A DNA stretch of 32,000 nucleotides from Sedimentisphaera cyanobacteriorum (GCF_001997385.1 NZ_CP019633.1:1890001-1922000); one strand, 5' to 3'. Shown: positions 10,025 through 24,590, counted from the stretch's first letter. Program-made: numbers and translations. Notes: generated from the sequence alone by a model not told the origin.

Positions 10025-10401
10025 TGCTCTGCCTTCCAAAGTCCGTGTTTGTTGCAGTATTCGCGTGCTGTTATCTTTTCAGCGTCAACTTTGAATTCTG
10101 CAATCGGTTCATCGCCCGGGTTGAGGAATTTTACGTAGCTGAAGCCGTCTGCAACAAGCTCAATCCACATTATATAATGCTCCTGCGCCATTGGATGAAG
10201 TACGCTGCCCACGGATACCTTGTAGCCGTCTGTGGTCTTTTCAATTACTGGAACATGCTTTTCTGTTGCAGCATCGGTTGTGTTTCCTTCAAGAAGTCTC
10301 ATAGGAGCGCCGCAGCAGTAAAGCTCGCCGTCGGCTCCGCAGTAAACCTCTACTACATTGCTGCATACAGGGCAAAAATAAATCTGTTGTCTCTTAGCCA
10401 T
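10021..10401 (-). CDS. dfx: Desulfoferrodoxin (2Fe superoxide reductase)
   Basis: 126 aa. It has an N-terminal desulforedoxin-type [10 protein letters not shown]...CCG motif and a C-terminal SOR domain (EKHVPVIE...[14 protein letters not shown]...CNKHGLW). Confidence 0.92.
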
Positions 10402-10451
10402 TTTTGTTACTCCTAAAATAAAGTTACAGCTCTGATTAGAGCCGGCTTAAC

Positions 10452-11630
10452 TTAAACCAGCCCTTCTGATCTGTGTTTTTCAAGTATTTTGTCTGCAAAT
10501 TCGTTTATAAGCCGCAAATCATCTTCTCGCGGCATACCTTTTATCATCAATGGTTCGATTAGTTCAGCCTTTATGTTCGGAATCATTGCCTGAAGCTTTT
10601 CAACCATCTTGCCGCCCCACCCGTAGCTGCCCATAATTGAAACGTATTTCGTTTTAGGCTTGAGCATATTTGAAAGAAAGGCAGCGTTGGCAAGGGCAGG
10701 ATGCGGGCCAGCGAGAATCTGAGGCCCTGCAAGCACTACTGTTGCGCTGTCAACAAGAGATGAGGCAAGCTGGCTTATATCACAGCCGACCAGATTGTAA
10801 GGCGTTGCGAGGATATTTCTTTCGGTAAGCTCATCAAGCAGATGCTCCACCATAATCCGAGTGCTGTGGTGCATTGATATATACGGAATCACCACGTGAT
10901 TTGTAACCTTATCGCTCACCCAGTCCTTATATGCGTTTATCGGAAACTGGGGGTCGTCGTATATCGGTCCGTGGCTTGCGGCTATCATATCGATATCGAG
11001 CTGGTCGATCTTTTCGAGATTCTTAACGATCACCTTCTTGTAGGGCATCATAATCTCAGCGTAGTAGCTTTTGATAAGCTCAAGCTGATAGGCATCTGAT
11101 TTGGCAAACATCTCGCTCGTGGCATAATGAGACCCGAACATATCGCACGGGAAGAGAACTTTGTCTTCCTGCAGGTATGCAGCCATAGTCTCAGGCCAGT
11201 GCACCCACGGGATAAAGAAAAACTGAAGCGTCTTGTCCCCAAGGCTCAGAGTGTCCCATTCCTCTACAACTTTTATCTGTTCGGGGCTGATGTGGAGGTG
11301 TTCCTGAAGCAGCTTAAAGTTCTTTTCATTCGTAACCACCCTGCATTCGGGAAATTCCTGAAGTATCACAGGAATGCAGCCGGAATGGTCCTGCTCGCAA
11401 TGCAGGCTTACAAGGTAATCGATCTTTTCAACGCCCAGCCGCTCCAGATTGGATAAAAGCGTATCAAATTTTTCCGGGTCAACGCTGTCTATAAGTGCAT
11501 TCTTTTCGCTGCCTTTGATGAAGTAGGAGTTGTAAGTAGTCCCTTCGGTGAGAGGAACAAGTTCATCAAAGAATTTCCTGTCCCAGTCTTTTGCTCCCAC
11601 GTAATATATGTTGTTTTTTATTTCCGTCAT
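10452..11630 (-). CDS. fprA: Flavodiiron protein (FprA / rubredoxin:oxygen oxidoreductase type)
   Basis: 392 aa. It has an N-terminal metallo-beta-lactamase-like diiron domain (IYYVGAKDWDRKFFDEL...GTTYNSYFI...SLHCEQDHSG) and a C-terminal flavodoxin-like domain. Confidence 0.88.
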   Translation of the reverse strand: MTEIKNNIYYVGAKDWDRKFFDELVPLTEGTTYNSYFIKGSEKNALIDSVDPEKFDTLLSNLERLGVEKIDYLVSLHCEQDHSGCIPVILQEFPECRVVTNEKNFKLLQEHLHISPEQIKVVEEWDTLSLGDKTLQFFFIPWVHWPETMAAYLQEDKVLFPCDMFGSHYATSEMFAKSDAYQLELIKSYYAEIMMPYKKVIVKNLEKIDQLDIDMIAASHGPIYDDPQFPINAYKDWVSDKVTNHVVIPYISMHHSTRIMVEHLLDELTERNILATPYNLVGCDISQLASSLVDSATVVLAGPQILAGPHPALANAAFLSNMLKPKTKYVSIMGSYGWGGKMVEKLQAMIPNIKAELIEPLMIKGMPREDDLRLINEFADKILEKHRSEGLV

Positions 11631-11675
11631 ATACTCTCCAATCCCTGTGTTTTAATACTTCGCTGTTAATAACTG

Positions 11676-11703
11676 ATTTTACAGTCTTGGCGGCATAATT
11701 CAA
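11676..11703 (-). promoter_or_regulatory. Candidate sigma70-type promoter for fprA-dfx-ftn-rbr-like-rub
   Basis: On the minus strand the sequence reads TTGAAT-16 nt-TAAAAT (plus-strand attcaa 11698-11703 and atttta 11676-11681). It lies just downstream of the rbr hairpin and ~45 nt upstream of the fprA ATG. Confidence 0.35.
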
Positions 11704-11713
11704 AGTTTATTAG

Positions 11714-11743
11714 AAGCGCCGAAGTGCAAAGTCTTCGGCGCTT
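11714..11743 (-). terminator. Strong hairpin after rbr (probable terminator or processing site)
   Basis: An 11-bp perfect stem, AAGCGCCGAAG (11714-11724) / CTTCGGCGCTT (11733-11743), with an 8-nt loop. The downstream U-tract on the minus strand is weak (CTAATAAACTTTG). Confidence 0.5.
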
Positions 11744-11758
11744 AATACTGTGCAGATT

Positions 11759-12331
11759 TTAGTAATTTTCAGGCTTTAGCTGGAAGTATGCCTTTGGATA
11801 CCTGCAAGTGGGGCAGATGCTGGGTGCTTCTTTGCCCTCGTGAAGGTATCCGCAGTTAATGCACATCCAGATGCAGCTGCCTTCTCTCGAAAAAACTTTA
11901 CCTTCTTCAAGGTTTTTCTTGAGGTTGGTGTATCTCTGGCGGTGGTGCATCTCAGCCTTTGCGATGTTCCTGAAAAGCCTTGCAATATCCTTAAAGCCTT
12001 CTTTGTCGGCTTCATCTGCAAAATTCGGATACATCGTTGTTACTTCGTAGTTCTCCCCCTCGAAGCCTTCCTGAAGATTCTCTACAGTAGTGCCAACTTT
12101 GCCTGCCGGGTAAGCGGCGGTAATCTCTACTTCTCTTCCTTCCATAAATCTGAACAGCCTCTTGGCATGCTCTTTTTCATGGTTTGCTGTTTGCTCGAAA
12201 ATATCTGCAATCTGTTCATAGCCTTCTTCTCTTGCCTTCTCGGCAAAATATGTGTAGCGGTTTCTTGCCTGTGATTCACCTGCAAACGCCTTTAGAAGAT
12301 TAGCTTCGGTTTTACTTCCCTTAAGTTCCAT
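11759..12331 (-). CDS. rbr: Rubrerythrin
   Basis: 190 aa. MELKGSKTEANLLKAFAGESQARNRYTYFAEKAREEGYEQIADIFEQTANHEKEHAKR is the diiron four-helix domain. The C-terminal rubredoxin-like motif is CINCGY...CPTC. Confidence 0.93.
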   Translation of the reverse strand: MELKGSKTEANLLKAFAGESQARNRYTYFAEKAREEGYEQIADIFEQTANHEKEHAKRLFRFMEGREVEITAAYPAGKVGTTVENLQEGFEGENYEVTTMYPNFADEADKEGFKDIARLFRNIAKAEMHHRQRYTNLKKNLEEGKVFSREGSCIWMCINCGYLHEGKEAPSICPTCRYPKAYFQLKPENY

Positions 12332-12382
12332 ATAATTCTCCTATGTAAGTTTAGTTATGCTAAAATAGTCTGATTACCCATT

Positions 12383-12829
12383 TTATTCTTTTTCAATTTT
12401 TTTTAAACATTCTTTGCAGCAGCCTTCAATATATACCGATTTTTTCAGTATTTTAAAGCCTTCCGGCATATTTTCAGGCGTCTCTATATCATCAAACGGC
12501 TCATAATGATAATCGAATATCTTTTTGCATATAACGCATTTCATGTGCTGGTGCTTATCGAGCCCAGCATCAAACCTGCGAACATCGCCGCTGCCTTCAA
12601 CTATGAACGCCGCTCCAATCTCTTTGAAAGTGAGCAGAGTTCTGTTTACCGTATCCAGTGAAATCCCCGGGTGCTCTTTTCTTACTTCCCTGTGCACCAT
12701 TTCAGCTGAAGGGTGGGAATTTGTTTCAGCAAGCACCTTGTAAACTGCAACACGCTGCGGGGTTACCCTAAGCCCGTTTTTCCTGCACAAATCTATAAAT
12801 TTTTGGACTTTTTCTTCAGTAGATTTCAT
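12383..12829 (-). CDS. perR: Fur-family transcriptional regulator, PerR-like by context
   Basis: 148 aa. It has a winged-helix N-terminus (RVTPQRVAVYKVLAE...HPSAEMVH) and two CxxC pairs (CVICKK, CCKEC). It is the first gene of a peroxide/superoxide detoxification cluster. Assigning it as PerR rather than Fur or Zur is inference. Confidence 0.7.
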   Translation of the reverse strand: MKSTEEKVQKFIDLCRKNGLRVTPQRVAVYKVLAETNSHPSAEMVHREVRKEHPGISLDTVNRTLLTFKEIGAAFIVEGSGDVRRFDAGLDKHQHMKCVICKKIFDYHYEPFDDIETPENMPEGFKILKKSVYIEGCCKECLKKIEKE

Positions 12830-12861
12830 AAGTTTTTCTGCTGACCTTAATCTTAGTAAGA

Positions 12862-12890
12862 ACTATATAGGAGAAACTCCTATCTGTCAA
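12862..12890 (-). promoter_or_regulatory. Promoter of perR with a palindromic candidate operator in the spacer
   Basis: On the minus strand the sequence reads TTGACA-gATAGGAGtttCTCCTAT-ATAGT. This places the -35 TTGACA at 12890-12885, a 17-nt spacer, and the -10 TATAGT at 12867-12862. The perfect 7-3-7 palindrome ATAGGAG/CTCCTAT occupies 12867-12883. Confidence 0.55.
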
Positions 12891-13076
12891 TGTTTTTTTT
12901 GTGTTTTTTAAAACTTTTCATTTTTTTTCGTAATATCCCGCCTTGCAGGTATAGAATAATATGTAAAGCAAATAAAAATCAATTCCTGCCGCTAAGATTG
13001 CAGCACAGAAATGATTTAGCAGAAGCGGTTTCAGTAAAAAAACATATTTATTATTAAAAAATTGAGGTATTTTCAG

Positions 13077-15188
13077 ATGAGAACAGGTAAATGCAGAGTA
13101 TGGATACTATTTTTAATTCTTTTTTCCTCATGCTCTGGTGCGTTTGCAGAAAAGATTGATGCATCACATCTTAAATACAGCGGACTGCGGGTCCTGGAAG
13201 ATTTTTCGGGAGCCCCGAAGGATGGTGTTTTAAAGAGCTGGGAAATTGAATTGCCGGAGTATAAATCTGTAGTTTATTTCAGCAAAGACGGCAGAAACGG
13301 CCTTTTAAGCGCTGCAAACAGGATTTTTCCCTGGGCAGCCAAAAGTCTTGAAGAGATAATCAGCAGCGATTTCAACCCCGACCCTACAACCCGAGAACCA
13401 TCAAGAAACGGCCTGCTTGCCCTTTTTAAGCTTAAAAACGAAAAGTTCCTTCTGCTTCACGGTTTGGCCTCGGGTAAAGCTATGAGCTATTTCCAGATTC
13501 ACGACAGCGGCAAATTCACCGTAAATCTTGCAACTTTCGGAAAAGAGCGGGTTTCAGGGGATATTCCCCTTATAGCTTGGGCAGAGGGGAAAGATGTTTA
13601 CAAGGTTTTCGATGATGCTTGGGAGCATATTTTTGCCCAGCGGACAATCTCCAAGACCGCAGCAGCGCGCTGCAGGAAAAGATATCCCGAACCGTTCAAA
13701 TATCTGGGCTGGTGCAGCTGGGAGCAGTATCGCAGGGACATCAGCTCCGATCTGCTCGTTGACGCTGCAGGCAGGATTGAATCCAGCTCTGTTCCGGTAC
13801 GCTGGATTCTTGTTGACGACGGCCATCAGCACCAAACCGGCTCCAAAATGGGCGACAGCCGAATGCTTTCTTTCAAGGCCAACCCGAAAACCTTCCCGAA
13901 CGGCTTCAAACCGCTTATGGAGCAGCGTTCTGAGAAAATTAAATGGATGGGCATCTGGCATACTATGAATGCCCATTGGCAGGGGATGCACCCAAACCAC
14001 CAAGTGCAGCAGCTGGATTCCCATCTGATCTCTATCAGCAAGAAAAGAAACGGCGAAGAATTTGAGCTGATGATGCCGAAGGACGACCCTGTTTCTTCAC
14101 GCAAGTTTTACGATGAACTTATCGGTTCTGCTGAAAGGCACGGTTTTGATTTCGTAAAAATTGACAACCAAAACCGTCAGGTATCTTTTTACACCGACAG
14201 GAGCAACGCTGTAGAAGCTGCTGCCCAGAATGCACAGTCGCTCGAAGAGGCAGCTGAAGAGTTTACCGATGGGTTGATCAACTGCTTCGCCCTGGATTTG
14301 ATCAGTGTTATGAATACCAAATACAGCTCAGTTTCGAGGGTTAGTGTTGATTACCTGCTTGGCAATGAAAATAAGGCAAAATCGCACCTTCTTCAGTCTT
14401 ATCAAAATACGCTCTGGATGGGGCAGGCAGTTTGGCCGGACCACGATATGTTCCATTCCTGCGACCCTGTAAGCGGGAGGATGATGGCTGTGAGCAAAGC
14501 TGTTGCCGGTGCACCGATATACCTCTCTGATGCCCCGAAAGATTTTGTGCCCAAGCTTATAAATCCGCTCTGCTGGGACGACGGAGAGCTCCTTCGCCCC
14601 CTTGCCCCAGCTGTACCTCTCCCGGATTCGGTTATGCTCTCGGCATTGTCTCAAGCCCGCCCGTACAGAGTTGCGGCGCCGCTGCCGAACGGCTCAGCGG
14701 CCGTTATTGCATATAATTTGGCAATACCCACACCTGATAAGCCCTTGGAGGCTTCTGTAAAAGAAGCTGACTACACCAAAGCAGGCTCATTTATCCAGCC
14801 TGCCGGGCAGTCTTGGCAGATTCCTGAAGAAGGGCTCGTTTATTACGACTGGTATCAAAAAGCCGGCGGAAAACTGAATTCTGAATATAAATTTGAGCTT
14901 AAAGGGTTTTCAGACCGGTTTGTCCAGCTCTCGCCGATCAAAAAGGGCTGGGCAGTTATCGGAAGGCCGGATAAATACCTTAGCGCTTCCGCTGTTGAGT
15001 CGATTAAATATGCCCCTGAAAAACTTACAGTTGAATTCGTTCAGTCCGGGCCGTTGGTGGTTTACAATAAAAGACCTGTTCAATGCAGCGAGGCTGAGAA
15101 AATAGATAATTTGGGCAATGGCCTATGGAAGCTTAAACTGCCCCAAAATAAAGAGGGGCTGGAAATACAAATTAAAGCCGGCAATTAA
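13077..15188 (+). CDS. GH36-clan glycosidase of the raffinose-synthase / Sip1 (alkaline alpha-galactosidase) type, secreted
   Basis: Trimmed to ATG 13077, giving the signal peptide MRTGKCRVWILFLILFSSCSGAFA. Family-type motifs are present: YLGWCSWEQY, VRWILVDDGHQ, FDFVKIDNQ and VWPDHDMFHS. Confidence 0.7.
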   Translation: MRTGKCRVWILFLILFSSCSGAFAEKIDASHLKYSGLRVLEDFSGAPKDGVLKSWEIELPEYKSVVYFSKDGRNGLLSAANRIFPWAAKSLEEIISSDFNPDPTTREPSRNGLLALFKLKNEKFLLLHGLASGKAMSYFQIHDSGKFTVNLATFGKERVSGDIPLIAWAEGKDVYKVFDDAWEHIFAQRTISKTAAARCRKRYPEPFKYLGWCSWEQYRRDISSDLLVDAAGRIESSSVPVRWILVDDGHQHQTGSKMGDSRMLSFKANPKTFPNGFKPLMEQRSEKIKWMGIWHTMNAHWQGMHPNHQVQQLDSHLISISKKRNGEEFELMMPKDDPVSSRKFYDELIGSAERHGFDFVKIDNQNRQVSFYTDRSNAVEAAAQNAQSLEEAAEEFTDGLINCFALDLISVMNTKYSSVSRVSVDYLLGNENKAKSHLLQSYQNTLWMGQAVWPDHDMFHSCDPVSGRMMAVSKAVAGAPIYLSDAPKDFVPKLINPLCWDDGELLRPLAPAVPLPDSVMLSALSQARPYRVAAPLPNGSAAVIAYNLAIPTPDKPLEASVKEADYTKAGSFIQPAGQSWQIPEEGLVYYDWYQKAGGKLNSEYKFELKGFSDRFVQLSPIKKGWAVIGRPDKYLSASAVESIKYAPEKLTVEFVQSGPLVVYNKRPVQCSEAEKIDNLGNGLWKLKLPQNKEGLEIQIKAGN

Positions 15189-15336
15189 AATCAGTCAGAA
15201 ACTCAATAATTTCTGATTTCTCAAGAAAATTTTGAAAGTTTATTGAAATAAAGCATTTTTTTTGTAAAAATTTTTGGCGTTCGTTGATAAATAGATGAGC
15301 GAAAAATTTTTAACTAATATATGGAGAAACCGATTT

Positions 15337-17181
15337 ATGAAAAAATGCGTTTTAATGATCCTGCTGGCCGCAGCGGCCGTATCTTTTGCAGAATGGAAAC
15401 CTGCGGGCGATAAGATTAAAACCAGATGGGCAGACAAAATAAACCCTGAAACTGTCTGGGATGAATATCCGAGGCCTCAATTCGAAAGAAGCAGCTGGAA
15501 ATCCCTCAACGGGCTTTGGGAGCTCAGAGTTGCGGGAAGCTCATCTGAAAAGCCCAATTATTTCGACAAAGAAATTCTCGTGCCATTCGGTGTTGAATCA
15601 TCACTGTCAGGCGTTGGAGAGCTCGTTGAACCGGACGACAAGATCTGGTATCACAGGACTTTTGAATGCCCAAATGATTTCAGCGGCAAGAAAGTTCTGC
15701 TGAACTTTGAAGCGGTGGACTGGAAAACAGCGGTATGGGTAAACGATTCGTACTTAGGCGGACACAAAGGCGGCTACGACCGCTTCACCTTCGATATCAC
15801 CGACTATCTCAAATCAGAAGGCCAGCAGAGCATTACAGTTATGGTAACCGATCCATCCAGCTACGGCTCACAGGCCAGGGGCAAGCAGAAGAATTCCCAG
15901 CACGGGATATGGTACACCCCTGTATCAGGTATCTGGCAGACAGTATGGCTTGAAGCGGTGGATAAGAAGGCGCATCTGGCCGATGTTGAAATCACTCCCG
16001 ATATCGACAGCAGCAGCGTTACCGTAATTCCGATTATGGACAGTCCTGAGCTGGGCAATTATTCCGTTCGCTGCAGCGTTTACGAGAGCGGGAGCCGAAT
16101 TGCTCAGAAAACCGTCAATGTGTACAAGCCTCTGGAAATAAAGATAGACAATCAGAAGCTATGGTCTCCGGACAACCCCTTCCTCTACGACTTAAAACTC
16201 GAGCTTTATGAAGGGAAAAACCCCGGCTCAGGCAAGCTTCTCGACACTGTAAAGAGCTATTTTGGTATGCGTAAGATCAGCCTTGGACAAGGCGAGCATA
16301 CCAAGGTGCTTATGCTCAACAACAAGCCGCTCTTCCATTACGGCACTCTCGACCAAGGATGGTGGCCGGACGGACTGCATACGCCGCCGTCTGATGAGGC
16401 GATGAAGTATGACATTGAAATGACCAAGAAGATGGGCTTCAATATGATCCGCAAGCACATCAAGATCGAGCCGGACAGATGGTTCTATTGGTGCGACAAG
16501 ATGGGGATTATGGTATGGCAGGATATGCCTTCTGGTATGATTGTCCCGAATCCTGAGAAAAGGGGAAGCCCTGAACACGTGGGCGGAAATGAGCCCGACC
16601 AGTACAAAAACTCCGAAGACGAAGCTCAGTTTGAGCTGGAGCTCAGGAAGATGATAAGCCAGCACTACAACAGCCCGAGTGTTGTGGTTTGGGTGCCGTT
16701 TAACGAAGGCTGGGGACAGTATGACACTTGCAGAATCAGCCGGATGGTGAAAGATCTAGACCCGACAAGGCTCGTTGATGCTGTGAGCGGATGGGCTCTG
16801 AGAGACTGCGGCGATATTCTCGATATTCACACATACCACAAAGACCTCCGCAAGCCCGATATCAACGAAAAAGACAGGGCAACCGCTGTTGGAGAATTCG
16901 GCGGGATCGGATATGCAATCAAAGGATACCTCTGGGACCCGAACAGAAGGAACTGGGGATATCAGTCTTACGATTCAAAGCAAGAGCTCTTCCAGAACTA
17001 CAAGCATAAATTCGATCAGATCGTGGAGATGAAGAAAAGCCAAGACCTCTCTGCTGCTGTTTACACGCAGACAACAGACGTTGAAGGCGAGGTTAACGGA
17101 CTTATGACGTATGACAGGGATGTGGTTAAATTTGACGAGGCCAAGCTTCGCAAACTGCACTCTGTGCTCTACGAAGAATAA
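15337..17181 (+). CDS. Glycoside hydrolase family 2 protein (beta-galactosidase / beta-glucuronidase-like), secreted
   Basis: Trimmed to ATG 15337, giving the signal peptide MKKCVLMILLAAAAVSFA. It has a GH2 sugar-binding region (LNFEAVDWKTAVWVNDSYLGGHKGGYDRFTFDITDYL) and a TIM-barrel with FNMIRKH and VVVWVPFNEGWGQ (acid/base NE). Confidence 0.8.
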   Translation: MKKCVLMILLAAAAVSFAEWKPAGDKIKTRWADKINPETVWDEYPRPQFERSSWKSLNGLWELRVAGSSSEKPNYFDKEILVPFGVESSLSGVGELVEPDDKIWYHRTFECPNDFSGKKVLLNFEAVDWKTAVWVNDSYLGGHKGGYDRFTFDITDYLKSEGQQSITVMVTDPSSYGSQARGKQKNSQHGIWYTPVSGIWQTVWLEAVDKKAHLADVEITPDIDSSSVTVIPIMDSPELGNYSVRCSVYESGSRIAQKTVNVYKPLEIKIDNQKLWSPDNPFLYDLKLELYEGKNPGSGKLLDTVKSYFGMRKISLGQGEHTKVLMLNNKPLFHYGTLDQGWWPDGLHTPPSDEAMKYDIEMTKKMGFNMIRKHIKIEPDRWFYWCDKMGIMVWQDMPSGMIVPNPEKRGSPEHVGGNEPDQYKNSEDEAQFELELRKMISQHYNSPSVVVWVPFNEGWGQYDTCRISRMVKDLDPTRLVDAVSGWALRDCGDILDIHTYHKDLRKPDINEKDRATAVGEFGGIGYAIKGYLWDPNRRNWGYQSYDSKQELFQNYKHKFDQIVEMKKSQDLSAAVYTQTTDVEGEVNGLMTYDRDVVKFDEAKLRKLHSVLYEE

Positions 17182-17250: not shown

Positions 17251-17398
17251 GCGCAAAATTATGGACACAGCCTTTCTTTCAAACAGCAGCTGGGCGAGCC
17301 TATGTTCGGGCATTTGCGAATCTCCCGGAAAGTTTTAGCACCAAAGAGGAGCCTGAGCTGATTTTTCAGCAGTGCGAATGTCCTCCGGATGTAAATTC

Positions 17399-17427
17399 TT
17401 GCGGTAAACCTGCAAAGCAATTATAAT
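17399..17427 (+). promoter_or_regulatory. Near-consensus sigma70 promoter for tRNA-Thr
   Basis: TTGCGG (17399-17404), a 17-nt spacer, then TATAAT (17422-17427). The -10 element ends 10 nt before the mature tRNA 5' end. Confidence 0.6.
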
Positions 17428-17437
17428 TCTCCACGCC

Positions 17438-17510
17438 GCCAATGTAGCTCAGTCGGCAGAGCACTGCTTTCGTAAAGCAGGGGTCGTGAGTTCGAGTCTC
17501 ACCATTGGCA
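17438..17510 (+). tRNA. tRNA-Thr (anticodon CGT)
   Basis: I folded the cloverleaf manually. The parts are: acceptor GCCAATG/CATTGGC, D arm GCTC-AGTCGGCA-GAGC, anticodon arm CTGCT-TTCGTAA-AGCAG (anticodon CGT), variable loop GGGTC, T arm GTGAG-TTCGAGT-CTCAC, and discriminator A. CCA is not encoded. Confidence 0.93.
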
Positions 17511-17562
17511 TTTTACACATCATTTTCAGCTTGCAGGGCGAGTTTTTTAATTGAACACTGAT

Positions 17563-17591
17563 ATTGCTTTTTTTCCGCTGTTGGTTTATAT
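17563..17591 (+). promoter_or_regulatory. Candidate promoter for the ATPase / TOPRIM-like pair
   Basis: TTGCTT (17563-17568), a 17-nt spacer, then TATATT (17586-17591). It lies ~45 nt upstream of ATG 17637, which has a GGAAGGGA ribosome-binding site. Confidence 0.3.
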
Positions 17592-17636
17592 TTACCTCGC
17601 TGCTGAAATCCGGAATGTGTCTCGGAAGGGAATATT

Positions 17637-18788
17637 ATGCAGATAAAAAGCTTTTCATATTCAGATACCATTAACAAATGGGAGCTTGCAGAGTCTAATT
17701 TCAACGATCTGAACCTGCTTGTGGGCATATCAGGCGTTGGGAAAACGCAGATCCTAAACTCGCTTCGTGTGGTGTCTCGGATTGCTGCTGGAGAAACCTA
17801 CAACGGCATAAGCTTTTCGCTGGTATTCCAAACCTCCCGTAAAGATGAATACCGCTGGGAAGCCAGCTTTGAAATGCTCGAACACATTGCCGAACAGAGC
17901 ATTTCTCTGCCCGATTTTGTGAGCCAGGGGGCGGAAAAGCCGAAGATAGAGCATGAATTCCTCAGCCTGAACGGCAAAACTATTCTGGAAAGAGATGCCG
18001 AATCGATAATCTTAAGCGGGGCAAAAACCCCAAAGCTCGATGCAAGCCAGAGCGCACTCAGCCTCCTGAAATTCGAAGACCTCATAGCCCCTGCCAGCAG
18101 GGAGATGAATAAAATCGTAAGCAGTTCAATGGCCTACAACGAGGCTCCCGAGATGTCTATGCTGAACCTCAGCGAATTCGAGCTTGCAGTCTCGAGGCTT
18201 GATTCACTGAAGAAAATCCGCGAGAGCGAGCTTTCAATCGGCATTAAGCTGAGCCTTATATTCTCCAACTGCTTCGATACCTTCGAAGAGATACGCGATG
18301 AATTTATCGATGTATTCCCGCAGGTAGAGGATGTAGTGGTAAACAGCAACGAGCAGTTCATCAACGGGCGGTTTGTGGTATGTCCCACAGTGCTTGTAAA
18401 GGAGAAGGGAGTTCCCGGATGGGTGAATCAGAAGCGACTCTCAGCGGGTATGCACAAGACATTCTACCAGATCACCCAGTCACATTTGTGGCCTGAAGGG
18501 TCTGTGATTCTAATCGACGAATTCGAAAACAGCCTCGGGATAAACTGCATCAACATCCTTACAGACATAATTCTCGGCCAGTCAAGAAGGCTTCAGTTTA
18601 TCATAACCAGCCATCACCCGTACATAATAAACAACATCGACCAGCGTTTCTGGCGTGTAGTAGTCCGCAATAAGGGCATGGTACGGATAAAAGATGCCGA
18701 AAGCCTCGGGCTCGGCAAATCCAACCATGAGGCGTTTATACAGCTGATCAACAATCAGGATTACATCGACGGAATAAGCTCGCAATGA
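17637..18788 (+). CDS. ABC-type (AAA_15/AAA_21-like, SMC/OLD-family) ATPase, 383 aa
   Basis: The motifs seen are: Walker A LLVGISGVGKTQ, signature-like LSAGMHKTF, Walker B plus D-loop VILIDEFENSLG, and H-loop FIITSHHP. The N-terminus MQIKSFSYSD...WELAESNF..LNLLVG is typical of OLD/AbiL/PARIS-type ATPases. The stop overlaps the next start (ATGA). Confidence 0.8.
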   Translation: MQIKSFSYSDTINKWELAESNFNDLNLLVGISGVGKTQILNSLRVVSRIAAGETYNGISFSLVFQTSRKDEYRWEASFEMLEHIAEQSISLPDFVSQGAEKPKIEHEFLSLNGKTILERDAESIILSGAKTPKLDASQSALSLLKFEDLIAPASREMNKIVSSSMAYNEAPEMSMLNLSEFELAVSRLDSLKKIRESELSIGIKLSLIFSNCFDTFEEIRDEFIDVFPQVEDVVVNSNEQFINGRFVVCPTVLVKEKGVPGWVNQKRLSAGMHKTFYQITQSHLWPEGSVILIDEFENSLGINCINILTDIILGQSRRLQFIITSHHPYIINNIDQRFWRVVVRNKGMVRIKDAESLGLGKSNHEAFIQLINNQDYIDGISSQ

Positions 18789-19498
18789 ATCTTTACATAT
18801 TAGTAGAAGGTAAATGTACGGAGTTTAAGCTCTATCCGGCATGGCTTTCGGTGCTGCTGCCGAAATTTGAGCGGGTTTACAGCTTCGATGAAGTCGAGCA
18901 GAACAATTACTACATTGTCAGCGGCTACGGCATCCCTTCGCTGATAAAGAATCACCTGCCCAATGCTATTCTGGATGTGGCAAAATTAAAAGAAAAATAC
19001 GATTACCTTGTAGTAGTTGTGGATGCTGAGGAGCTCAGCGTAGAGCAGAGAAAGAGCGAGGTTGCAGAGGTTCAAAGGCGCTACAAGCAGCAGCTCGGCG
19101 ATGTGAAGGTGCAGGTAGTGGTGCAGAACAGGTGCATTGAAACGTGGCTCTTGGGCAATCGTGAGATGATTCCGCCCTCGCCAAAGCGGGAAAAGCTCAA
19201 AAGATACATAGACTACTACGACATCAACTTCAACAACCCTGAAAATATGCCCAATTACGTTGACGATACTGATGCCCGCGAGGAAGGCCCGCATTTTTCT
19301 ACTACCGCAAGATTCCACACCGACTACCTTCAGGAGGTATTCAAGGAGCAGAATATGGTTTATACCAAACGCAACCCGAGATACGCCTCCAATGAGCAGT
19401 TTTTGAAAGGGCTTATGCGTCGGGTAATGTACGACCCTGCCGATTTAGTTACATTTCAGGAATTTTTAAGCTTCTGCGAGACTGTATCAGAGAATTGA
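18785..19498 (+). CDS. Small TOPRIM-like protein (DUF4276 / RloB-like), 237 aa
   Basis: The N-terminus MNLYILVEGKCTE carries the TOPRIM-type hhhhEG..E motif. An acidic strand YLVVVVDAEE follows, then CIETWLLGN, an E-x-W-L-L motif I associate with the DUF4276/RloB families. The gene is translationally coupled to the ATPase. The family assignment comes from my recollection of motifs, not from an HMM search. Confidence 0.55.
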   Translation: MNLYILVEGKCTEFKLYPAWLSVLLPKFERVYSFDEVEQNNYYIVSGYGIPSLIKNHLPNAILDVAKLKEKYDYLVVVVDAEELSVEQRKSEVAEVQRRYKQQLGDVKVQVVVQNRCIETWLLGNREMIPPSPKREKLKRYIDYYDINFNNPENMPNYVDDTDAREEGPHFSTTARFHTDYLQEVFKEQNMVYTKRNPRYASNEQFLKGLMRRVMYDPADLVTFQEFLSFCETVSEN

Positions 19499-19622
19499 TC
19501 TATTTGAAGGCAGGGGTTAGTCTGGTTTTTCGATATGAAAATCCTCCTTGGCTGCCTGCCCTGCTTGCCAAAACTTTTTCATTAAATATAATCCCTTAAA
19601 CTATTTGCTAACAGGAATAAAT

Positions 19623-20363
19623 GTGTCAGATAAACTGCTTGAAACAAGAGGACTGGTGAAAAAATTCTCCGGCAGAGCCGTGGTAAACCACGTATCGCTT
19701 TCTGTAAGGAAGAAAGAGATAGTAGGCCTGCTGGGCAGGAACGGCGCCGGGAAAACTACATCATTCAGGATGTGCATCGGTATGATAATACCGGATGAAG
19801 GGCAGGTATTTTTCGACGGCCATCAGGTCGGCCGGATGCCTATGTACAAGCGTGCGCGCAAGGGGATGGGGTATTTATCTCAAGAACCGAGCGTATTCCA
19901 GAGGCTCTCGGTACGTGATAATCTGCTCGCAATACTCGAGACCCTCAAAATCACAAAAGCCCAGCGGATTCTCAAGGCAGAAGAGCTCTGCGAAACCTTC
20001 GGGCTAACCGAGGTTTACCATTCTCAGGCAAGGCTTCTCTCCGGCGGTGAAAGACGCAAGCTCGAAATAGCAAGGGCAATGGCCACAAATCCGTCTCTGA
20101 TATTTCTCGATGAGCCTTTCAGCGGAGTAGATCCGATAGCGGTCGAAGAGCTGCAAAGGGAGATTGAAAACCTCCATAATTCCGGCGTCAGCATACTTAT
20201 CACAGACCATAACGTTGAAAGGACGCTGGAGATTGTAGATAAGGCGTATATTATGGATCACGGAAGCGTGATTGCCTCAGGCCGGCCTTCAGAGATTATT
20301 AAGGATGAGCTTGTTAGAAAGAGCTATCTGGGCAAGACTTTCAAAGGCGATGAGTTTGATTAA
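19623..20363 (+). CDS. lptB: LPS export ABC transporter ATP-binding protein
   Basis: The start is GTG at 19623, with AGGA 7 nt upstream. This gives 246 aa beginning (M)SDKLLETRGLVKKFSGRAVVNHVSLSVRKKEIVGLLGRNGAGKTTSF...YLSQEPSVFQRLSVRDNL...LSGGERRKLEIARA...IFLDEPFSGVDP. The track's upstream extension from 19548 was rejected. Confidence 0.88.
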   Translation: MSDKLLETRGLVKKFSGRAVVNHVSLSVRKKEIVGLLGRNGAGKTTSFRMCIGMIIPDEGQVFFDGHQVGRMPMYKRARKGMGYLSQEPSVFQRLSVRDNLLAILETLKITKAQRILKAEELCETFGLTEVYHSQARLLSGGERRKLEIARAMATNPSLIFLDEPFSGVDPIAVEELQREIENLHNSGVSILITDHNVERTLEIVDKAYIMDHGSVIASGRPSEIIKDELVRKSYLGKTFKGDEFD

Positions 20364-20385
20364 TCCCTATACTGCGGAAAACTAT

Positions 20386-20685
20386 ATGACTGAAAAATTT
20401 GAGACAGTTGAACCGATCGGCAGGAGAGTGCTGATCAGGAAAGATGAAGATAAAAAACAGACAAAAGGCGGGATTCAGCTTCCGGACAATATGGAGATAC
20501 CGAACATAACCGGACGGATTGTTGAAGTGTCAGCGGAAGTTGCTAATCTGCCTGAAGTGCCGCTGAGCCAGTACGATAAAGTGCTTTTTAATCCCAAGGG
20601 CGCAATACCCGTGGATTTTGAGGGCGATAACAGGCTTTTTGTGGTGGATGTGGAGAATATCGTTGCTGTATTCAGGAAGTCCTGA
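20386..20685 (+). CDS. GroES (Cpn10)-family protein, divergent, with no adjacent groEL
   Basis: Trimmed to ATG 20386. The sequence MTEKFETVEPIGRRVLIRKDEDKKQTKGGIQLPDNMEIPNITGRIVEVS...YDKVLFNPKGAIPVDFEGDNRLFVVDVENIVAVF follows the GroES pattern (PLGDRVLV..E...KT.GGI.LP......G.VVAVG...GD.VLF......V......L....DILAV). Confidence 0.7.
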   Translation: MTEKFETVEPIGRRVLIRKDEDKKQTKGGIQLPDNMEIPNITGRIVEVSAEVANLPEVPLSQYDKVLFNPKGAIPVDFEGDNRLFVVDVENIVAVFRKS

Positions 20686-20701
20686 GCAGTATTTGGAAGT
20701 T

Positions 20702-20790
20702 TTCAAGGCCGGTTGTTCAGGGTAAAACCTCTATTTTATCGCTTCGCAGACCGGAAATGGAAGATACGCCGCCTTGAAGATTGTTTTTTT
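20702..20790 (+). terminator. Possible structured terminator after the GroES-like gene
   Basis: TTCAAGGC (20702-20709) pairs with GCCTTGAA (20771-20778) across a 61-nt interior. An inner CGGT/ACCG pairing is possible. T7 at 20784-20790 follows. Confidence 0.35.
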
Positions 20791-20884
20791 GTTGACGAAA
20801 AGGTAATTTTATAAGATACTCTTAGGCTGTATTTTCAGTTTATAATGTATCGAAACATAATGCGGATATTCAAGGAGAATTGGT

Positions 20885-22300
20885 ATGCCGGCAGGTAAAC
20901 AGAGTCAGGGAAGTGCCACGACCATAGCATTGGTCGTATTTGTGGTTCTTTTTCTGCTCTCAACAGTTGCAGCAGTGTTTTTCTATGTCAAGTGGGACGA
21001 GAAAACAACTATAGCTGAACGAGAGGTTGCAAACAGAAGAGAAGCTGCTACAGATCAGCAGGTAAGCGAGTTTGAATCGCTGGTAGGCGAGAAAACAGCC
21101 CAGAGCTATTTGGGAACTGTAATAGAAAGATTTGATGAAGTCTATCAAGAGATAACAGGAAGCTCAAGAGATAAAAACATCCAGTCTGCAGCAGAGAATA
21201 TCTCGCTGGAAGTAAAGGCTTTGAGGAACAGATTCCCGAATATGTTTTCTCAGGATGCGGGGCTTCTGCCAATAGCTGGAACTCTTGCGGGCGAGTACGT
21301 GCGTTCTGCTCAGACAGTAAGCTCGCTTCAGGACAAGATTGCCCAGATGGAAGAAGACTGGCAGAGAGATGTTGAAGGATTTAAGGTTGCCGAAGAAAAG
21401 CTTATCGAACAGAAGCAAAAGCTTATCGAACAGGCAGACCAGATTCAGGCCAAGTTCGACCAGATGAAATCTGAAGCACAGCAGAATGCTCAGGAAAATA
21501 TAGATGCACTTCAGGAAAAGCTTGCTGAGAAAAACAGCCAGCTTGAAGATGTGAAAAATGAGCTTGCAGACCTTCAGGCATCATTCAAAGAGCAGAAGCA
21601 GTATCGCGAGAAGCTCGAAAAGCAGCTCGAACAGATCAAGCCAAGCCCTGATATGGATGTTGCAGCATACAAACCTGACGGCAGAATCGTTTCGGTTAAT
21701 GCTCAGCAGGGAATTGTTTATTTAGACCTCGGAAGCGATGCAAATATCTACCGCGGGCTTACTTTCGCAGTTTACGACAGGGCAAACCCCGTGCCTAAAG
21801 ACGGCAAGGGCAAAGCGGAGATCAAGATTTATGATGTTCGCTCGAAGGTTTCTGTGGCTAAGATTATCTCTCAGGAACAGAACAACCCTGTCCTGCCGGA
21901 GGATATAATAGTTAATCTTATCTGGGATGAGGAAAAGCCGAATACATTCTATGTAGCGGGCAATTTCGATCTCGACGGCAACGGCACAATCGACGAATAC
22001 GGCGGAGATAAAGTTCGCCACCTCATAAAGCAGTGGGGCGGAATTGTGGCTGATAAGATAGACATCAACACTGATTTTGTAGTAGCTGGGCAGCCTCCGG
22101 AGGTTTACCAGCAGCCGCAGGAGAATGAGCTTGATGCTGATCTCGCCGAGCAGAAGTATCAGGAATCGCTTGATAAATACGAAACTTACAACTCTGCTAT
22201 CGAAAGGGCTCAGTCGCTTTCAATACCGGTATTCAATACCGAACGCTTCAAGAGCCTTATCGGCTATAATCAGGAAATCAAAAACAATATGACCAAATAG
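20885..22300 (+). CDS. Membrane-anchored coiled-coil protein with a C-terminal BRCT-like domain, function unknown
   Basis: It has an AGGAG ribosome-binding site. It has one N-terminal TM helix (TTIALVVFVVLFLLSTVAAVFFYV) and a long E/K/Q-rich coiled-coil of about 200 aa. A beta-rich middle domain follows. The C-terminus TFYVAGNF...GGDKVRHLIKQWGGIVADKIDINTDFVVAGQPP resembles BRCT (TFV.TG...GGKV...TDYLVAG). Confidence 0.6.
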   Translation: MPAGKQSQGSATTIALVVFVVLFLLSTVAAVFFYVKWDEKTTIAEREVANRREAATDQQVSEFESLVGEKTAQSYLGTVIERFDEVYQEITGSSRDKNIQSAAENISLEVKALRNRFPNMFSQDAGLLPIAGTLAGEYVRSAQTVSSLQDKIAQMEEDWQRDVEGFKVAEEKLIEQKQKLIEQADQIQAKFDQMKSEAQQNAQENIDALQEKLAEKNSQLEDVKNELADLQASFKEQKQYREKLEKQLEQIKPSPDMDVAAYKPDGRIVSVNAQQGIVYLDLGSDANIYRGLTFAVYDRANPVPKDGKGKAEIKIYDVRSKVSVAKIISQEQNNPVLPEDIIVNLIWDEEKPNTFYVAGNFDLDGNGTIDEYGGDKVRHLIKQWGGIVADKIDINTDFVVAGQPPEVYQQPQENELDADLAEQKYQESLDKYETYNSAIERAQSLSIPVFNTERFKSLIGYNQEIKNNMTK

Positions 22301-22322
22301 ATTGTTTCAGAAATGAATTTTT

Positions 22323-22356
22323 AGGCCGGTTGTTTTTCTGCTTCCGGCCTTTTTTT
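22323..22356 (+). terminator. Rho-independent terminator
   Basis: AGGCCGG (22323-22329) pairs with CCGGCCT (22344-22350) around a 14-nt loop. A T-run follows through 22356. Confidence 0.75.
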
Positions 22357-22384
22357 ATTCAGTCTCCCGAGGGCTGGAGATAAT

Positions 22385-24442
22385 ATGGCTGTCAACCTCA
22401 ATACTGAAATCCAGATGCTGAAGGGAGTTGGGCCGGGCAAGGCGCCTGCTCTTCAGGAATTAGGCGTGCATAACGGCGCAGACCTGCTTGAGTATTTCCC
22501 AAGAGACTGGGAATTCCTCCCGGAAACCGCACAGATTTCAGAGCTCACGCCAAACGCAAACGTGTGTGTATGCGGGGTGATTGAAAGCACCGATTACCAC
22601 AAATTCAAGCGAAAGCCTATATTCGAGATTTATCTGATAGACACAAGCGCTGCTTTGCGCATAATTTGGTTCAACGGGGGCTACCTCGCAAATCAGCTCC
22701 ATCCGGGGATGAGGCTCGCAGCTTACGGAAAGGTTGCAAAATACAAACATCAGCTTCAGATGACAAACCCCCGCTTTAAGATTCTCAGAGAAGATATCCC
22801 CGAGCACGACCCCAAGCAGCTTGGAGGGGCGGTGTATCCCGCTAGCGCATCGATTTCAAGCGGGATGCTCAAATACATTGTTCGAAAGAATATTGATGAG
22901 CTTTCTGACTGCGTAAGCGAATATTTCTCCGAATCCTTCAGAGAGGAGAAAAACCTTCTCTCCAGAAAAGAAGCTTTCAGGCAGATACATTCACCGCAGG
23001 ATGAGAAACATCTCTCAGCAGCAAAAAGAACGCTCAAGTATGAAGAGCTGTTCCTTATGCAGCTCGGGCTTGCCGTTCGCAGATACAGAATGCGGAGTTT
23101 TGCTCCGTCTATAGCGATGAAATTCTCCCCGCAGCTGGACAGAAGAATTAGGCAGCGATTCCCCTTCTTCCTAACAGAAGATCAGGACAAAGCGATTGAG
23201 GAAATCGTTCACGATATGGGCGAGCCAAAGCAGATGAACCGTCTGCTTCAGGGTGATGTGGGCTCGGGCAAAACGGTTGTGGCGGTTTATGCGGCATTAA
23301 TGGCCATAGCAAACAAGACGCAGGTGGCGATTATGGCGCCCACGGAGATACTCTCCCGCCAGCATTACCATAGCATATCCCGTTTTCTCGAGGGGAGCAA
23401 AGTTCGAACCGAGCTGGTTACAGGCAAGATGTCTGTCTCTGAGAAAAACCGGCTCACAGAGCAGATCAGCGAAGGCGAAGTGGATATTGTAATCGGTACA
23501 ACCGCCCTGATTCAAGGGGGCATAGATTTCCAAAATCTCGGGCTTGCTGTTATAGATGAGCAGCACAAATTCGGCGTAGAGCAAAGGGCAAAGCTCCGCA
23601 AGGACAAGGCCCCGCACTGCCTCGTAATGACAGCCACCCCAATCCCCCGCACTATGACAATGACTGTATTCGGCGATTTGGACGTTTCTGTTATCAAAAC
23701 CTTACCTCCCGGGAGGGGCAGGGTTACTACAAAGCTCGTTTCACCGGAGAACCGAAACAAGGCAATGGAATATATCAGAGGCCTTGTTAAGGCAGGAAGA
23801 CAGGCATTTTTTGTGTATCCGCGCATTGAATCGGGCGAGTCCGACAGGAATCTCAAGAGCGCAGAGGAAGAATTCGAACTGCTGGAAACCTGCGTTTACC
23901 CGGAATTCAGCGTGGCTCTGCTTCACGGCCAGATGCCTCAGGAGCAGAAGAAAAATGTTATGGAGCAGTTCCGCAGGGGTGAGATAAATATTCTCGTTTC
24001 CACAGTTGTGATTGAGGTGGGAGTGGATGTACCTAACGCTACGGTTATGGTAATAGAAAATGCAAACAATTTCGGCCTCGCCCAGCTCCATCAGCTAAGA
24101 GGAAGAATAGGAAGAGGGGCGAGCGATTCATTCTGCTTCCTTTTCTCCGAATCTGATAATGAAACGGCAATCAAGCGTCTTGAGGTTATGCAGAAAAGCA
24201 CCGATGGATTCTACATAGCAGAGAAAGACCTCGAAATCAGAGGCCCGGGAGAGCTTTTCAGCACAAGACAGCACGGCCTGCCAGACCTGAAGCTTGCAAA
24301 TATCGTAGAAGATTTTGAGATGCTCAGAATGGCAAAGAAAGACGCAGAACAAACGCTAAAGGAAGACCCGTTCCTCGATACTCAGGAAAATCAGAATGTA
24401 AAGAAGGCGATTATCAAAAATTCGGCACCCGCTTGGGGCTGA
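22385..24442 (+). CDS. recG: ATP-dependent DNA helicase RecG
   Basis: 685 aa. It has an N-terminal wedge/OB region and the helicase motifs GDVGSGKTVVA, DEQHKFG, TATPIPRT and QLHQLRGRIGRG. Confidence 0.93.
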   Translation: MAVNLNTEIQMLKGVGPGKAPALQELGVHNGADLLEYFPRDWEFLPETAQISELTPNANVCVCGVIESTDYHKFKRKPIFEIYLIDTSAALRIIWFNGGYLANQLHPGMRLAAYGKVAKYKHQLQMTNPRFKILREDIPEHDPKQLGGAVYPASASISSGMLKYIVRKNIDELSDCVSEYFSESFREEKNLLSRKEAFRQIHSPQDEKHLSAAKRTLKYEELFLMQLGLAVRRYRMRSFAPSIAMKFSPQLDRRIRQRFPFFLTEDQDKAIEEIVHDMGEPKQMNRLLQGDVGSGKTVVAVYAALMAIANKTQVAIMAPTEILSRQHYHSISRFLEGSKVRTELVTGKMSVSEKNRLTEQISEGEVDIVIGTTALIQGGIDFQNLGLAVIDEQHKFGVEQRAKLRKDKAPHCLVMTATPIPRTMTMTVFGDLDVSVIKTLPPGRGRVTTKLVSPENRNKAMEYIRGLVKAGRQAFFVYPRIESGESDRNLKSAEEEFELLETCVYPEFSVALLHGQMPQEQKKNVMEQFRRGEINILVSTVVIEVGVDVPNATVMVIENANNFGLAQLHQLRGRIGRGASDSFCFLFSESDNETAIKRLEVMQKSTDGFYIAEKDLEIRGPGELFSTRQHGLPDLKLANIVEDFEMLRMAKKDAEQTLKEDPFLDTQENQNVKKAIIKNSAPAWG

Positions 24443-24590
24443 CAGATATAGCTTAAGGCAGCTGAGCTCATTTGGGATTTTTTCAAGGCCAGTAAAACGC
24501 CATGATAAATGCAAAAAGCGAAGCGTTCGGGAATTAAAGCAGACAGCTGGCCGCTGTATATTTTCGGCGGTTTTTGAGGAGTTTCAAGGG

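Follow-up and report, generated by a model that had tools for sequence, protein, structure and literature searches.

We analysed a 32,000-nucleotide stretch of the Sedimentisphaera cyanobacteriorum (Phycisphaerae) genome, NZ_CP019633.1:1890001-1922000, hereafter called the window, with all positions counted from its first nucleotide. The subject of this study is a two-gene cassette lying between a tRNA-Thr gene and lptB, in which gene 1 encodes an ATP-binding cassette (ABC) ATPase and gene 2 a small protein assigned by its Pfam matches to the DUF4276/RloB type (Table 1). An earlier note, made from the sequence alone, had described this cassette as an insert-like candidate defence system of the split-OLD, PARIS or AbiL kind. 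The positions and lengths that it gave for the tRNA, the two overlapping genes and lptB were all correct, and every peptide motif that it quoted was found in the translations. These motifs are not chance resemblances, because they are invariant or nearly so in 100 homologues of gene 1 and 120 homologues of gene 2. The interval from tRNA-Thr to lptB (2112 bp) holds exactly these two genes, as had been claimed, and no further open reading frame (ORF) with homologues or conservation was found in it. Both proteins were 100% identical to S. cyanobacteriorum database entries (P0001, locus tag L21SP3_01542, for gene 1 and P0121 for gene 2). The stop codon of gene 1 overlaps the start codon of gene 2, indicating that translation of the two genes would be coupled.

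Table 1. Features of the cassette and its flanks, with positions in the window.
Feature	Residues	Position (nt)	Strand	Source
tRNA-Thr (anticodon CGT)		17438-17510	+	ARAGORN; Rfam tRNA, 71.6 bits
Terminator-like hairpin followed by T-run, just 3' of the tRNA		17528-17544	+	Consensus scan only
Gene 1, ABC ATPase	383 aa	17637-18788	+	ORF; Pfam AAA_21
Walker A, GISGVGKT	aa 30-37	17724-17747	+	Gene 1 translation
ABC signature, LSAGMHKTF	aa 268-276	18438-18452 (SxGM)	+	Gene 1 translation
Walker B, ILIDEFENSLG	aa 291-301	18504-18521 (hhhhDE)	+	Gene 1 translation
H-loop, ITSHH	aa 323-327	18603-18617	+	Gene 1 translation
ATGA stop/start overlap of genes 1 and 2 (caATGAat)		18785-18788	+	Sequence
Gene 2, DUF4276/RloB-type	237 aa	18785-19498	+	ORF; Pfam DUF4276
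VEGKxTE (in YILVEGKCTE; E8, E13)	aa 4-13	18794-18823	+	Gene 2 translation and alignment
SGxGxP (G47, G49)		18920-18937	+	Gene 2 alignment
DAEE (in VVVVDAEE; D80, E82, E83)	aa 76-83	19010-19033	+	Gene 2 translation and alignment
QNRCIETWLLGN (E119; includes CIETWLLGN)	aa 117-125 (CIETWLLGN)	19124-19159	+	Gene 2 translation and alignment
Sigma-70-like promoter ahead of lptB, TTGCCA/16-nt spacer/TATAAT, 11/12 matches		19565-19592	+	Consensus scan
lptB	246 aa	19623-20363	+	GTG start; product 100% identical to same-organism LptB (P0241)

Gene 1 matched the Pfam family AAA_21 (PF13304) with 49.3 bits (E 9.8e-13), residues 25-332 covering positions 1-304 of the 304-position profile; since the gathering cut-off of this family is 27 bits, gene 1 belongs to it. 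Twelve residues of its ATPase motifs (G30, S32, G33, G35, K36, S269, G271, M272, D294, E295, H326 and H327) were invariant in the 100 homologues. Among the PADLOC defence models AbiLi gave the best match (1.2e-17), followed by AriA (6e-12 and 1.9e-11 with its models), PDC-M25A, PtuA, HEC-01A and mad3. Foldseek searches with the AlphaFold (AF2) model, whose predicted local distance difference test score (pLDDT) was 87.6, returned PtuA from Septu and retron systems as well as Rad50 and SMC heads, with E values of 4e-11 to 1e-8, with 194 matches at E <= 1e-3. When a profile of the gene 1 family was searched against PDB sequences, AriA came first (4.9e-5, over residues 262-331 only) and PtuA next, and an hhalign comparison with P2 Old gave an E value of 9e-4 that covered only the stretch from Walker B to the H-loop. 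The Pfam, defence-model, motif, Foldseek and profile matches together place gene 1 in the AAA_15/21 clade. It is thus a compact ABC ATPase of a clade used by many defence systems and is not specifically OLD-like, and the SMC/ABC-type ATPase of a defence clade that had been read from the sequence is upheld.

Gene 2 reached 31.3 bits (E 2.9e-7) against Pfam DUF4276 (PF14103), about 1 bit above the cut-off of 30.2, and 25.2 bits (E 2.2e-5) against RloB (PF13707), below the cut-off of 31.5; by the Pfam threshold it would be a relative of RloB and not a member. Across the 120 members of its family, DUF4276 matched 115 (E <= 1; best 1.9e-7), RloB 109 (weakly) and DUF3226 32, the Pfam Toprim model touched only two (E 0.14), and neither DUF4435 nor Toprim_OLD matched any. 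With the PADLOC models, AbiLii matched 119 of the 120 and HEC-01B 70, all weakly, and AriB none; for gene 2 itself HEC-01B was best (1.2e-5), followed by AbiLii (4e-5, 22 bits).

The AF2 model of gene 2 was of high confidence (pLDDT 95.4; predicted template modelling score 0.91) and comprised an N-terminal domain of alternating beta strands and helices (residues 1-125) and a C-terminal helical domain (residues 136-236). Its four strands (residues 3-7, 41-46, 74-80 and 108-114) are each followed by a conserved motif. E8 lies right after β1 and E13 five residues further on, both conserved in 119 of 119 sequences; G49 (119/120) and G47 (103/120) follow β2; D80 (120/120) stands at the end of β3, with Asp in 81 and Glu in 38 of the 120 sequences at position 82; and E119 (120/120) lies in the helix after β4. 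The protein of the window carries D-A-E at the third motif, not D-x-D. In the helical domain H178, Y181, K195 and R213 are invariant or nearly so. TOPRIM is defined by a Glu at β1, with a Gly following β2 and a DxD motif at β3, to which OLD nucleases add catalytic E404, T506/E508 and K562 (Schiltz 2019, PMC6755086). Gene 2 displays this pattern, because E8, G47/G49 and D80-x-[D/E]82 sit at the ends of β1, β2 and β3; judged from conservation only, E13, E119 and one of K195, R213 or H178 are candidates for the second metal site and the catalytic Lys of OLD. The DUF4276/RloB grouping and the TOPRIM-type acidic motifs read earlier from the sequence are therefore borne out by the Pfam matches and the residue conservation.

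Structure and sequence comparisons of gene 2 with known TOPRIM proteins gave little. Foldseek of the model against the PDB found nothing at E <= 1e-3 and no TOPRIM protein among the top 50, and the OLD and AriB TOPRIM domains that the earlier note had named as targets for such a search did not appear there; the leading matches, all at E >= 0.027, were lumazine synthases (best, 0.027), riboflavin synthases, a designed Rossmann protein and small GTPases. The search against BFVD likewise yielded nothing at E <= 1e-3 and listed no TOPRIM entry, and phmmer and profile hmmsearch against PDB sequences returned no matches, AriB included. The hhalign comparison of the gene 2 family with P2 Old had a probability of 0.6% and aligned 10 columns, placing LVEGKxTE on LLVEGKTE of Old (395-404). 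However, the C-terminal TOPRIM part of P2 Old itself recovered no OLD crystal structure from the PDB sequences, and these negative sequence searches consequently carry limited weight. In SCOP, lumazine synthase and TOPRIM share a four-stranded 2-1-3-4 three-layer topology, which would explain the lumazine synthase matches. Three reports assign DUF4276, RloB or HEC-01B to TOPRIM by structure or HHpred (PMC12065111; 10.1101/2024.01.29.577857; PMC10440598): DUF4276 and RloB were placed in the TOPRIM superfamily with a catalytic E and DxD (PMC12065111, Menshen, 2025), and HEC-01B shares the conserved BpOLD metal site (10.1101/2024.01.29.577857). By analogy with these proteins, gene 2 is probably a TOPRIM-like metal-dependent nuclease effector.

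To describe the pair as a unit, we surveyed one genome per species for 185,579 species and obtained 425 loci with a relative of gene 2; pairing and taxa were taken from the best 80 of these loci. Most of the 80 belong to cyanobacteria, and Planctomycetota, Hydrogenedentota, Acidobacteriota and Bacteroidota are represented too; many of the gene 2 relatives come from Nostoc. In 78 of the 80 loci the gene just upstream, on the same strand, is a homologue of gene 1, the two exceptions being a contig end and a fragment. The spacing between the stop of the first gene and the start of the second, available for 79 loci, was -4 nt at 49 loci, -1 nt at 17 and between 0 and 11 nt at the other 13, and stop and start hence overlap in 66. 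An exhaustive profile search over 1.84 billion representatives yielded only 800 clusters at 50% identity; the 150 best cluster representatives were about 125-254 residues long, mostly 220-250, and none of them was fused to an ATPase. The pair is a discrete, tightly coupled and obligate two-gene cassette with a patchy distribution. Neither Sedimentisphaera species is among the best 80 of the 425 loci, where the closest entry is 68% identical; the genus seems to be missing or masked in the genome collection and is present in the protein collection.

Copies of the pair were found on plasmids of 9-15 kb in Proteus, Acinetobacter and Methylovorus, as well as on plasmids of cyanobacteria, and the small-plasmid copies lie beside rep genes and a RelE/ParE toxin-antitoxin pair. 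On pMsip02 of Methylovorus glucosotrophus (locus L006, 9.8 kb) the pair is accompanied by a Zot-like protein, DUF2523, SppA and an integrase, and the plasmid looks like an inovirus-like element carrying the pair as cargo. A Planktothrix copy adjoins GmrSD, an Eco57I-like methyltransferase and XamI on an element with a relaxase and ParB.

The situation in Sedimentisphaera is one of vertical inheritance. S. salicampi holds the same tRNA-Thr/pair/lptB/groES/recG block (7072 bp, 86.9% identity; window 17398-24456 against 9764-16823 of locus L001), including the same tRNA-Thr upstream of the pair. Between the two species the synonymous divergence (dS) was 0.74 for gene 1, 0.69 for gene 2 and 0.67 for lptB, and the ratio of nonsynonymous to synonymous divergence (dN/dS) was 0.034, 0.032 and 0.016, respectively. 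Both genes of the pair are under strong purifying selection in Sedimentisphaera. Because the block is shared and the dS of the pair matches that of lptB, the pair was already present in the common ancestor of the two described species; it descended vertically together with lptB from a time before they separated and is not a recent island. At the order level the pair is accessory, since four relatives (LptB 75-81% identical) have neither the pair nor a tRNA upstream of lptB and two related Phycisphaerae have it at unrelated loci with 56-68% identity. The comparison of the interval between relatives, which the earlier note had suggested, thus revealed variable presence across the order, but within the genus the same block is kept in S. 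salicampi.

The claim that the segment is insert-like and that tRNA-Thr served as its landing site did not hold. No repeat of the tRNA 3' end of the att type was found in the region, no integrase was found among the window genes, and the GC content at the pair (0.44-0.50) is as in the flanks; furthermore, the pair has the same dS as lptB, and 80 other loci showed no tRNA within 1.5 kb of the pair. An island integrated at the tRNA was rejected on these grounds. The tRNA-Thr is a neighbour and not a demonstrated part of the module, and it forms the left edge of the block common to S. salicampi. Synteny between the two species is confined to this single 7-kb block, which begins 40 nt upstream of tRNA-Thr and stops where recG ends. 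The genes that precede the tRNA in S. salicampi encode valyl-tRNA synthetase, a MarR regulator, a radical-SAM protein, RmuC and AbiEi/AbiEii, and the window has a GH36-like gene and a GH2 gene in their place. As synteny ends at the tRNA and the upstream genes differ, tRNA-Thr marks a rearrangement breakpoint.

The neighbourhoods elsewhere were examined by scanning, in 36 other loci, the two ORFs closest to the pair on either flank, 144 ORFs in all and without a matched background. MnmG (13) and VanY (10) were the commonest families. About 10 of the 144 neighbours gave strong PADLOC matches (DpdF, IetA/IetS, Csx3, PsyrT, MTase_II, HEC-06 and others), the rest being housekeeping genes, and a few toxin-antitoxin domains (PIN, Phd and Uma2) were present. 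Association with defence genes is therefore present and modest, which agrees with the finding of Payne et al. (10.1101/2024.01.29.577857) that most candidate systems are not enriched near other defences. The tRNA-modification gene mnmG/gidA stands directly beside the pair in 13 of the 36 loci, mostly of Nostocales, and a gene for a VanY-like peptidase is among the neighbours in 10; the mnmG-adjacent loci include L019, L021, L027, L034, L035, L041, L045, L046, L049 and L060, with positions of about 7.0-8.7 kb on the minus strand. The mnmG neighbourhood points to long vertical retention of the pair in cyanobacteria.

The closest label for the window pair is an AbiL-like or HEC-01-like pair of an ABC ATPase and a DUF4276-RloB TOPRIM protein, and the AbiL part of the original proposal is supported in that the nearest defence models are AbiLi/AbiLii and HEC-01A/B. 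AbiL of the Lactococcus plasmid pND861 likewise consists of two genes, an ATPase gene followed by one for a small RloB/TOPRIM-like protein. In gene order and overlap the window pair agrees with AbiL; AbiLi is the top PADLOC match of gene 1, and the AbiLii models match nearly the whole gene 2 family. Nevertheless, the similarity is weak, since the AbiLi match is partial and covers only positions 76-243 of the 326-position profile and the AbiLii score is low, and no BLAST-level similarity was detected between the window pair and any lactococcal plasmid. The hosts are Firmicutes for AbiL and Planctomycetota and Cyanobacteria here, and the anti-phage activity of AbiL has been shown only in Lactococcus. 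HEC-01 (Hma-embedded candidate 01, PADLOC-DB v2) also combines an ABC ATPase, HEC-01A, with a separate TOPRIM-like protein, HEC-01B; HEC-01B is the top PADLOC match of gene 2, and HEC-01A matched gene 1 at about 1e-8 (1.5e-8). However, HEC-01 is defined by its embedding in Hma, and no Hma genes were found in the window or in the inspected loci. Only part of the gene 2 family matches HEC-01B, and weakly, so that the pair was not assigned to HEC-01 itself.

PARIS has a separate ABC ATPase and TOPRIM effector with toxin-antitoxin-like logic, and among PDB sequences it is its AriA that the profile of the gene 1 family matches best. Membership in PARIS, which had been among the initial suggestions, is nonetheless ruled out by the absence of any DUF4435 or AriB signal in the 120 members of the gene 2 family, AriB being a DUF4435 protein. 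AriA, moreover, has about 464 residues with coiled-coil insertions, compared with 383 in gene 1; Foldseek ranks PtuA and Rad50 above AriA for gene 1, and AbiLi outscores AriA. Deep et al. 2024 describe AbiL, RloAB and the Nostoc system as structurally distinct from PARIS.

The resemblance to OLD nucleases (P2 Old in class 1, GajA of Gabija in class 2) lies in the combination of ABC ATPase and TOPRIM modules, in a helical domain after the TOPRIM core, and in a candidate two-metal site, with VEGKxTE corresponding to LVEGKTE of Old, a Dx[D/E] motif and, in the first helix following β4, an acidic residue. OLD and GajA each consist of one polypeptide of about 580 residues, whereas here separate genes overlap by 4 nt, and the spacing between the two Glu residues is five in gene 2 and four in Old. 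Since the proteins are split and the profile similarity to P2 Old is marginal for both, the pair is not a strict OLD-family nuclease; the specific designation as a split OLD goes too far, as no OLD, GajA or AriB structure was retrieved for gene 2. Gabija was also rejected, for no UvrD-like helicase (GajB) is adjacent, the neighbours being tRNA-Thr and lptB; RecG, 3 kb from the pair, has a housekeeping function and is syntenic in S. salicampi.

ATPase and DUF4276/RloB-type pairs further occur as mad3/mad4 of MADS, as RloA/RloB of Campylobacter and as an unnamed system of Nostoc. The mad3 model matched gene 1 at 1.7e-8. In MADS, however, mad3/mad4 are part of an eight-gene methylation-associated operon, and rloAB lie within type I restriction-modification loci; no such partners were found here. 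MADS was rejected, as the NCBIfam model MAD4 gave 14 bits (E 0.039) against a cut-off of 160 and no multi-gene operon (MAD6-8) was present. DUF4276/RloB partners of AAA_15/21 ATPases are already described in AbiL, MADS3-4, HEC-01 and RloAB, and the novelty originally attached to the pair was overstated in this respect (PMC11464382; PMC12065111; 10.1101/2024.01.29.577857). Burman 2024 (PMC11464382) used the RloB and DUF4276 Pfam models in annotating AAA15/21 defence ATPases and added AbiL and MADS3-4 to the ABC ATPase and TOPRIM systems. Deep 2024 and a 2026 FEMS review count AbiL, RloAB and an unnamed system of two Nostoc genes among ATPase plus toprim/OLD systems whose mechanism is unknown. 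Since cyanobacteria form the centre of the present family, this family may be identical with that unnamed Nostoc system (Makarova 2011).

Taken together, we consider it moderately probable that the interval is a self-contained conflict module, with two translationally coupled genes, of the kind that joins an ABC ATPase to an OLD-like TOPRIM nuclease, with AbiL and HEC-01 as its nearest named relatives. Anti-phage defence by the pair is plausible by analogy with these systems. In the mechanism that we propose, the gene 1 ATPase, as putative sensor or regulator, would dimerise or oligomerise through its ABC heads and keep the gene 2 protein inactive in a complex. A cue from a phage or plasmid would then shift the nucleotide state or the conformation of the ATPase, and the gene 2 nuclease would be released or activated. 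A two-metal site formed by E8, E13, D80, E82 and E119 would cut nucleic acid, the candidate substrates being DNA, as for OLD and GajA, or tRNA or rRNA, as for AriB and RNase M5; the infected cell would stop growing, in an abortive infection of toxin-antitoxin-like character. PARIS is the best-understood template for such a mechanism, in which AriA sequesters AriB, Ocr triggers its release and AriB cleaves tRNA (PMC11464382; PMC10802264). AbiL protects Lactococcus against phage (PMC13064643), NetFlax pairs of AAA and TOPRIM_OLD proteins were validated as toxin and antitoxin by neutralisation assays (PMC10440598), and AbiLii of F. nucleatum is toxic in E. coli (PMC3985639). Several observations weigh against a defence module of this kind. 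AbiLi of F. nucleatum failed to neutralise AbiLii (PMC3985639), and HEC-01, the nearest experimentally tested candidate, gave no protection against any phage tried (10.1101/2024.01.29.577857). The DUF4276 score of gene 2 exceeds its cut-off by just 1 bit, and the RloB, AbiLii and HEC-01B scores are weak. Most contexts are housekeeping and not defence islands (GH2, LptB, GroES and RecG in the window; MnmG in 13 of 36 other loci), and the stable inheritance in Sedimentisphaera, with a dN/dS of about 0.03 and a dS equal to that of lptB, is more core-like than that of typical defence cargo.

These points leave room for other explanations. The pair could be a selfish addiction cassette, in which a nuclease toxin and an ATPase antitoxin secure their own maintenance without a dedicated anti-phage role. 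The very small plasmids on which it lies beside rep genes and the RelE/ParE pair, the strict bicistron with overlapping genes, the PIN, Phd and Uma2 genes among the neighbours, the toxin/antitoxin validation of related AAA and TOPRIM_OLD pairs and the missing phage phenotype of HEC-01 would all fit such a cassette. We nevertheless hold it to be unlikely: a 383-residue, ATP-driven "antitoxin" with fully conserved catalytic motifs suggests signal sensing over simple neutralisation, AbiL and PARIS protect against phage with the same architecture, and addiction does not need long vertical chromosomal retention under strong purifying selection. Addiction is in any case not exclusive of defence, PARIS being both. 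A housekeeping pair for nucleic-acid maintenance, acting in repair or RNA processing in the manner of RecF-RecR, Rad50-Mre11 or RNase M5 and co-opted as a stable chromosomal function in Sedimentisphaera, is a poorer prospect that we regard as improbable. Such a function should occur much more widely and with more synteny, whereas relatives occur at only 425 loci among the 185,579 species genomes, four close relatives have no pair upstream of lptB and two others carry it at unrelated loci, copies reside on small plasmids and on the inovirus-like episome, and the nearest hidden Markov models all come from defence systems. What speaks for it is the position of the pair inside the 7-kb block common to two species, its lptB-like dS and low dN/dS, a locus without mobile-element signature, the adjacency of mnmG in other loci, and Rad50 and SMC heads among the Foldseek matches of gene 1.

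The remaining alternative concerns gene 2 only, which might be a Rossmann- or flavodoxin-like adaptor or nucleotide-binding protein and not a TOPRIM nuclease, with its acidic residues serving otherwise and the DUF4276/RloB match reflecting a distant resemblance at the level of the fold. The Foldseek ranking, the empty PDB profile search, the near absence of Pfam Toprim matches and the low hhalign probability given above are what such a protein would produce. Yet the three canonical TOPRIM motifs and two additional acidic residues of the OLD type stand invariant at predicted strand ends, the TOPRIM of P2 Old equally finds no OLD structure by sequence, three papers put DUF4276/RloB/HEC-01B in TOPRIM, and the topology common to lumazine synthase and TOPRIM would account for the Foldseek matches; we judge this alternative to be very improbable.

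Returning to the conflict module, we also considered whether the cyanobacteria-centred family of about 800 clusters, which includes bacteria living with cyanobacteria and combines a 383-residue ATPase with a DUF4276-like protein of 225-240 residues, might be a mechanistically distinct ATPase-TOPRIM branch, probably missed by detection tools and possibly with its own trigger and an RNA target. This is a tentative proposal that we find rather unlikely. A link to tRNA is weakly hinted at by tRNA-Thr in Sedimentisphaera and by mnmG in the 13 loci. The module is retained for a long time in housekeeping neighbourhoods, unlike typical defence cargo.

With regard to the borders of the cassette, the hairpin 3' of the tRNA would separate the pair from tRNA transcription; the number of terminator-like sites in the region was not above shuffled expectation in the consensus scan. 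On the right, the predicted promoter ahead of lptB suggests that lptB may be independent of read-through from the pair, and that this promoter would be the right boundary of the module. A mechanical ORF listing starts lptB at TTG 19548; the true start is most likely GTG 19623, because the resulting 246-residue product matches the same-organism database LptB in length and sequence. LptB of the window is 98% identical to that of S. salicampi. A noncoding RNA component was not found, the Rfam scan of the window returning tRNA only. The sole notable direct repeat in the region (17722-17746 and 19732-19756; 25 nt, 72% identical) is the Walker A coding sequence of gene 1 and of lptB, both being ABC ATPases, and is not an att or recombination site. 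The genes around the pair in the window are housekeeping or metabolic: Fur, rubrerythrin, GH36-like, GH2, LptB, GroES, RecG, LeuA, DnaN and GyrB.

Three further observations were made elsewhere in the window. ARAGORN called a tRNA-Gln(CTG) at 6506-6574 (+), inside a full-length amidase ORF (6026-7501; Pfam Amidase, 515 bits) and absent from the Rfam tRNA matches at the gathering threshold; this call is almost certainly a false positive. A CorA Mg2+ transporter gene at 7702-8675 (-) is split into two overlapping ORFs, 8028-8675 corresponding to profile positions 2-171 and 7702-8064 to positions 180-291, with their junction near a run of nine C (about 8072-8080, minus strand). The split may reflect a sequencing error that shifted the frame, a pseudogene or a tract prone to slippage. 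At about 12830-13060 gene orientation flips from minus to plus and the cumulative GC skew has its minimum, with dnaN and gyrB at 26.4-30.4 kb, and this region looks replication-origin-proximal. No cluster of DnaA boxes was found in the window, where 10 one-mismatch matches are scattered against 5.65 expected.

Modules that pair an ABC ATPase with a TOPRIM protein, such as OLD, Gabija, PARIS and AbiL, are a major theme of bacterial immunity, and to our knowledge only PARIS and Gabija are mechanistically understood. We found no biochemical characterisation of the DUF4276/RloB branch in the literature, as the earlier note had supposed of the DUF4276-type partner; the single representative that has been tested, HEC-01, showed no phenotype. 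For the Sedimentisphaera genome, the result means only a better annotation of two "hypothetical" genes. For the family, its compact size, the very confident structure predictions and the clear invariant residues make the pair a convenient model, with which it could be asked whether sequestration and release operate in all such pairs, what the nuclease targets, and why some of the copies are retained for so long in core neighbourhoods.

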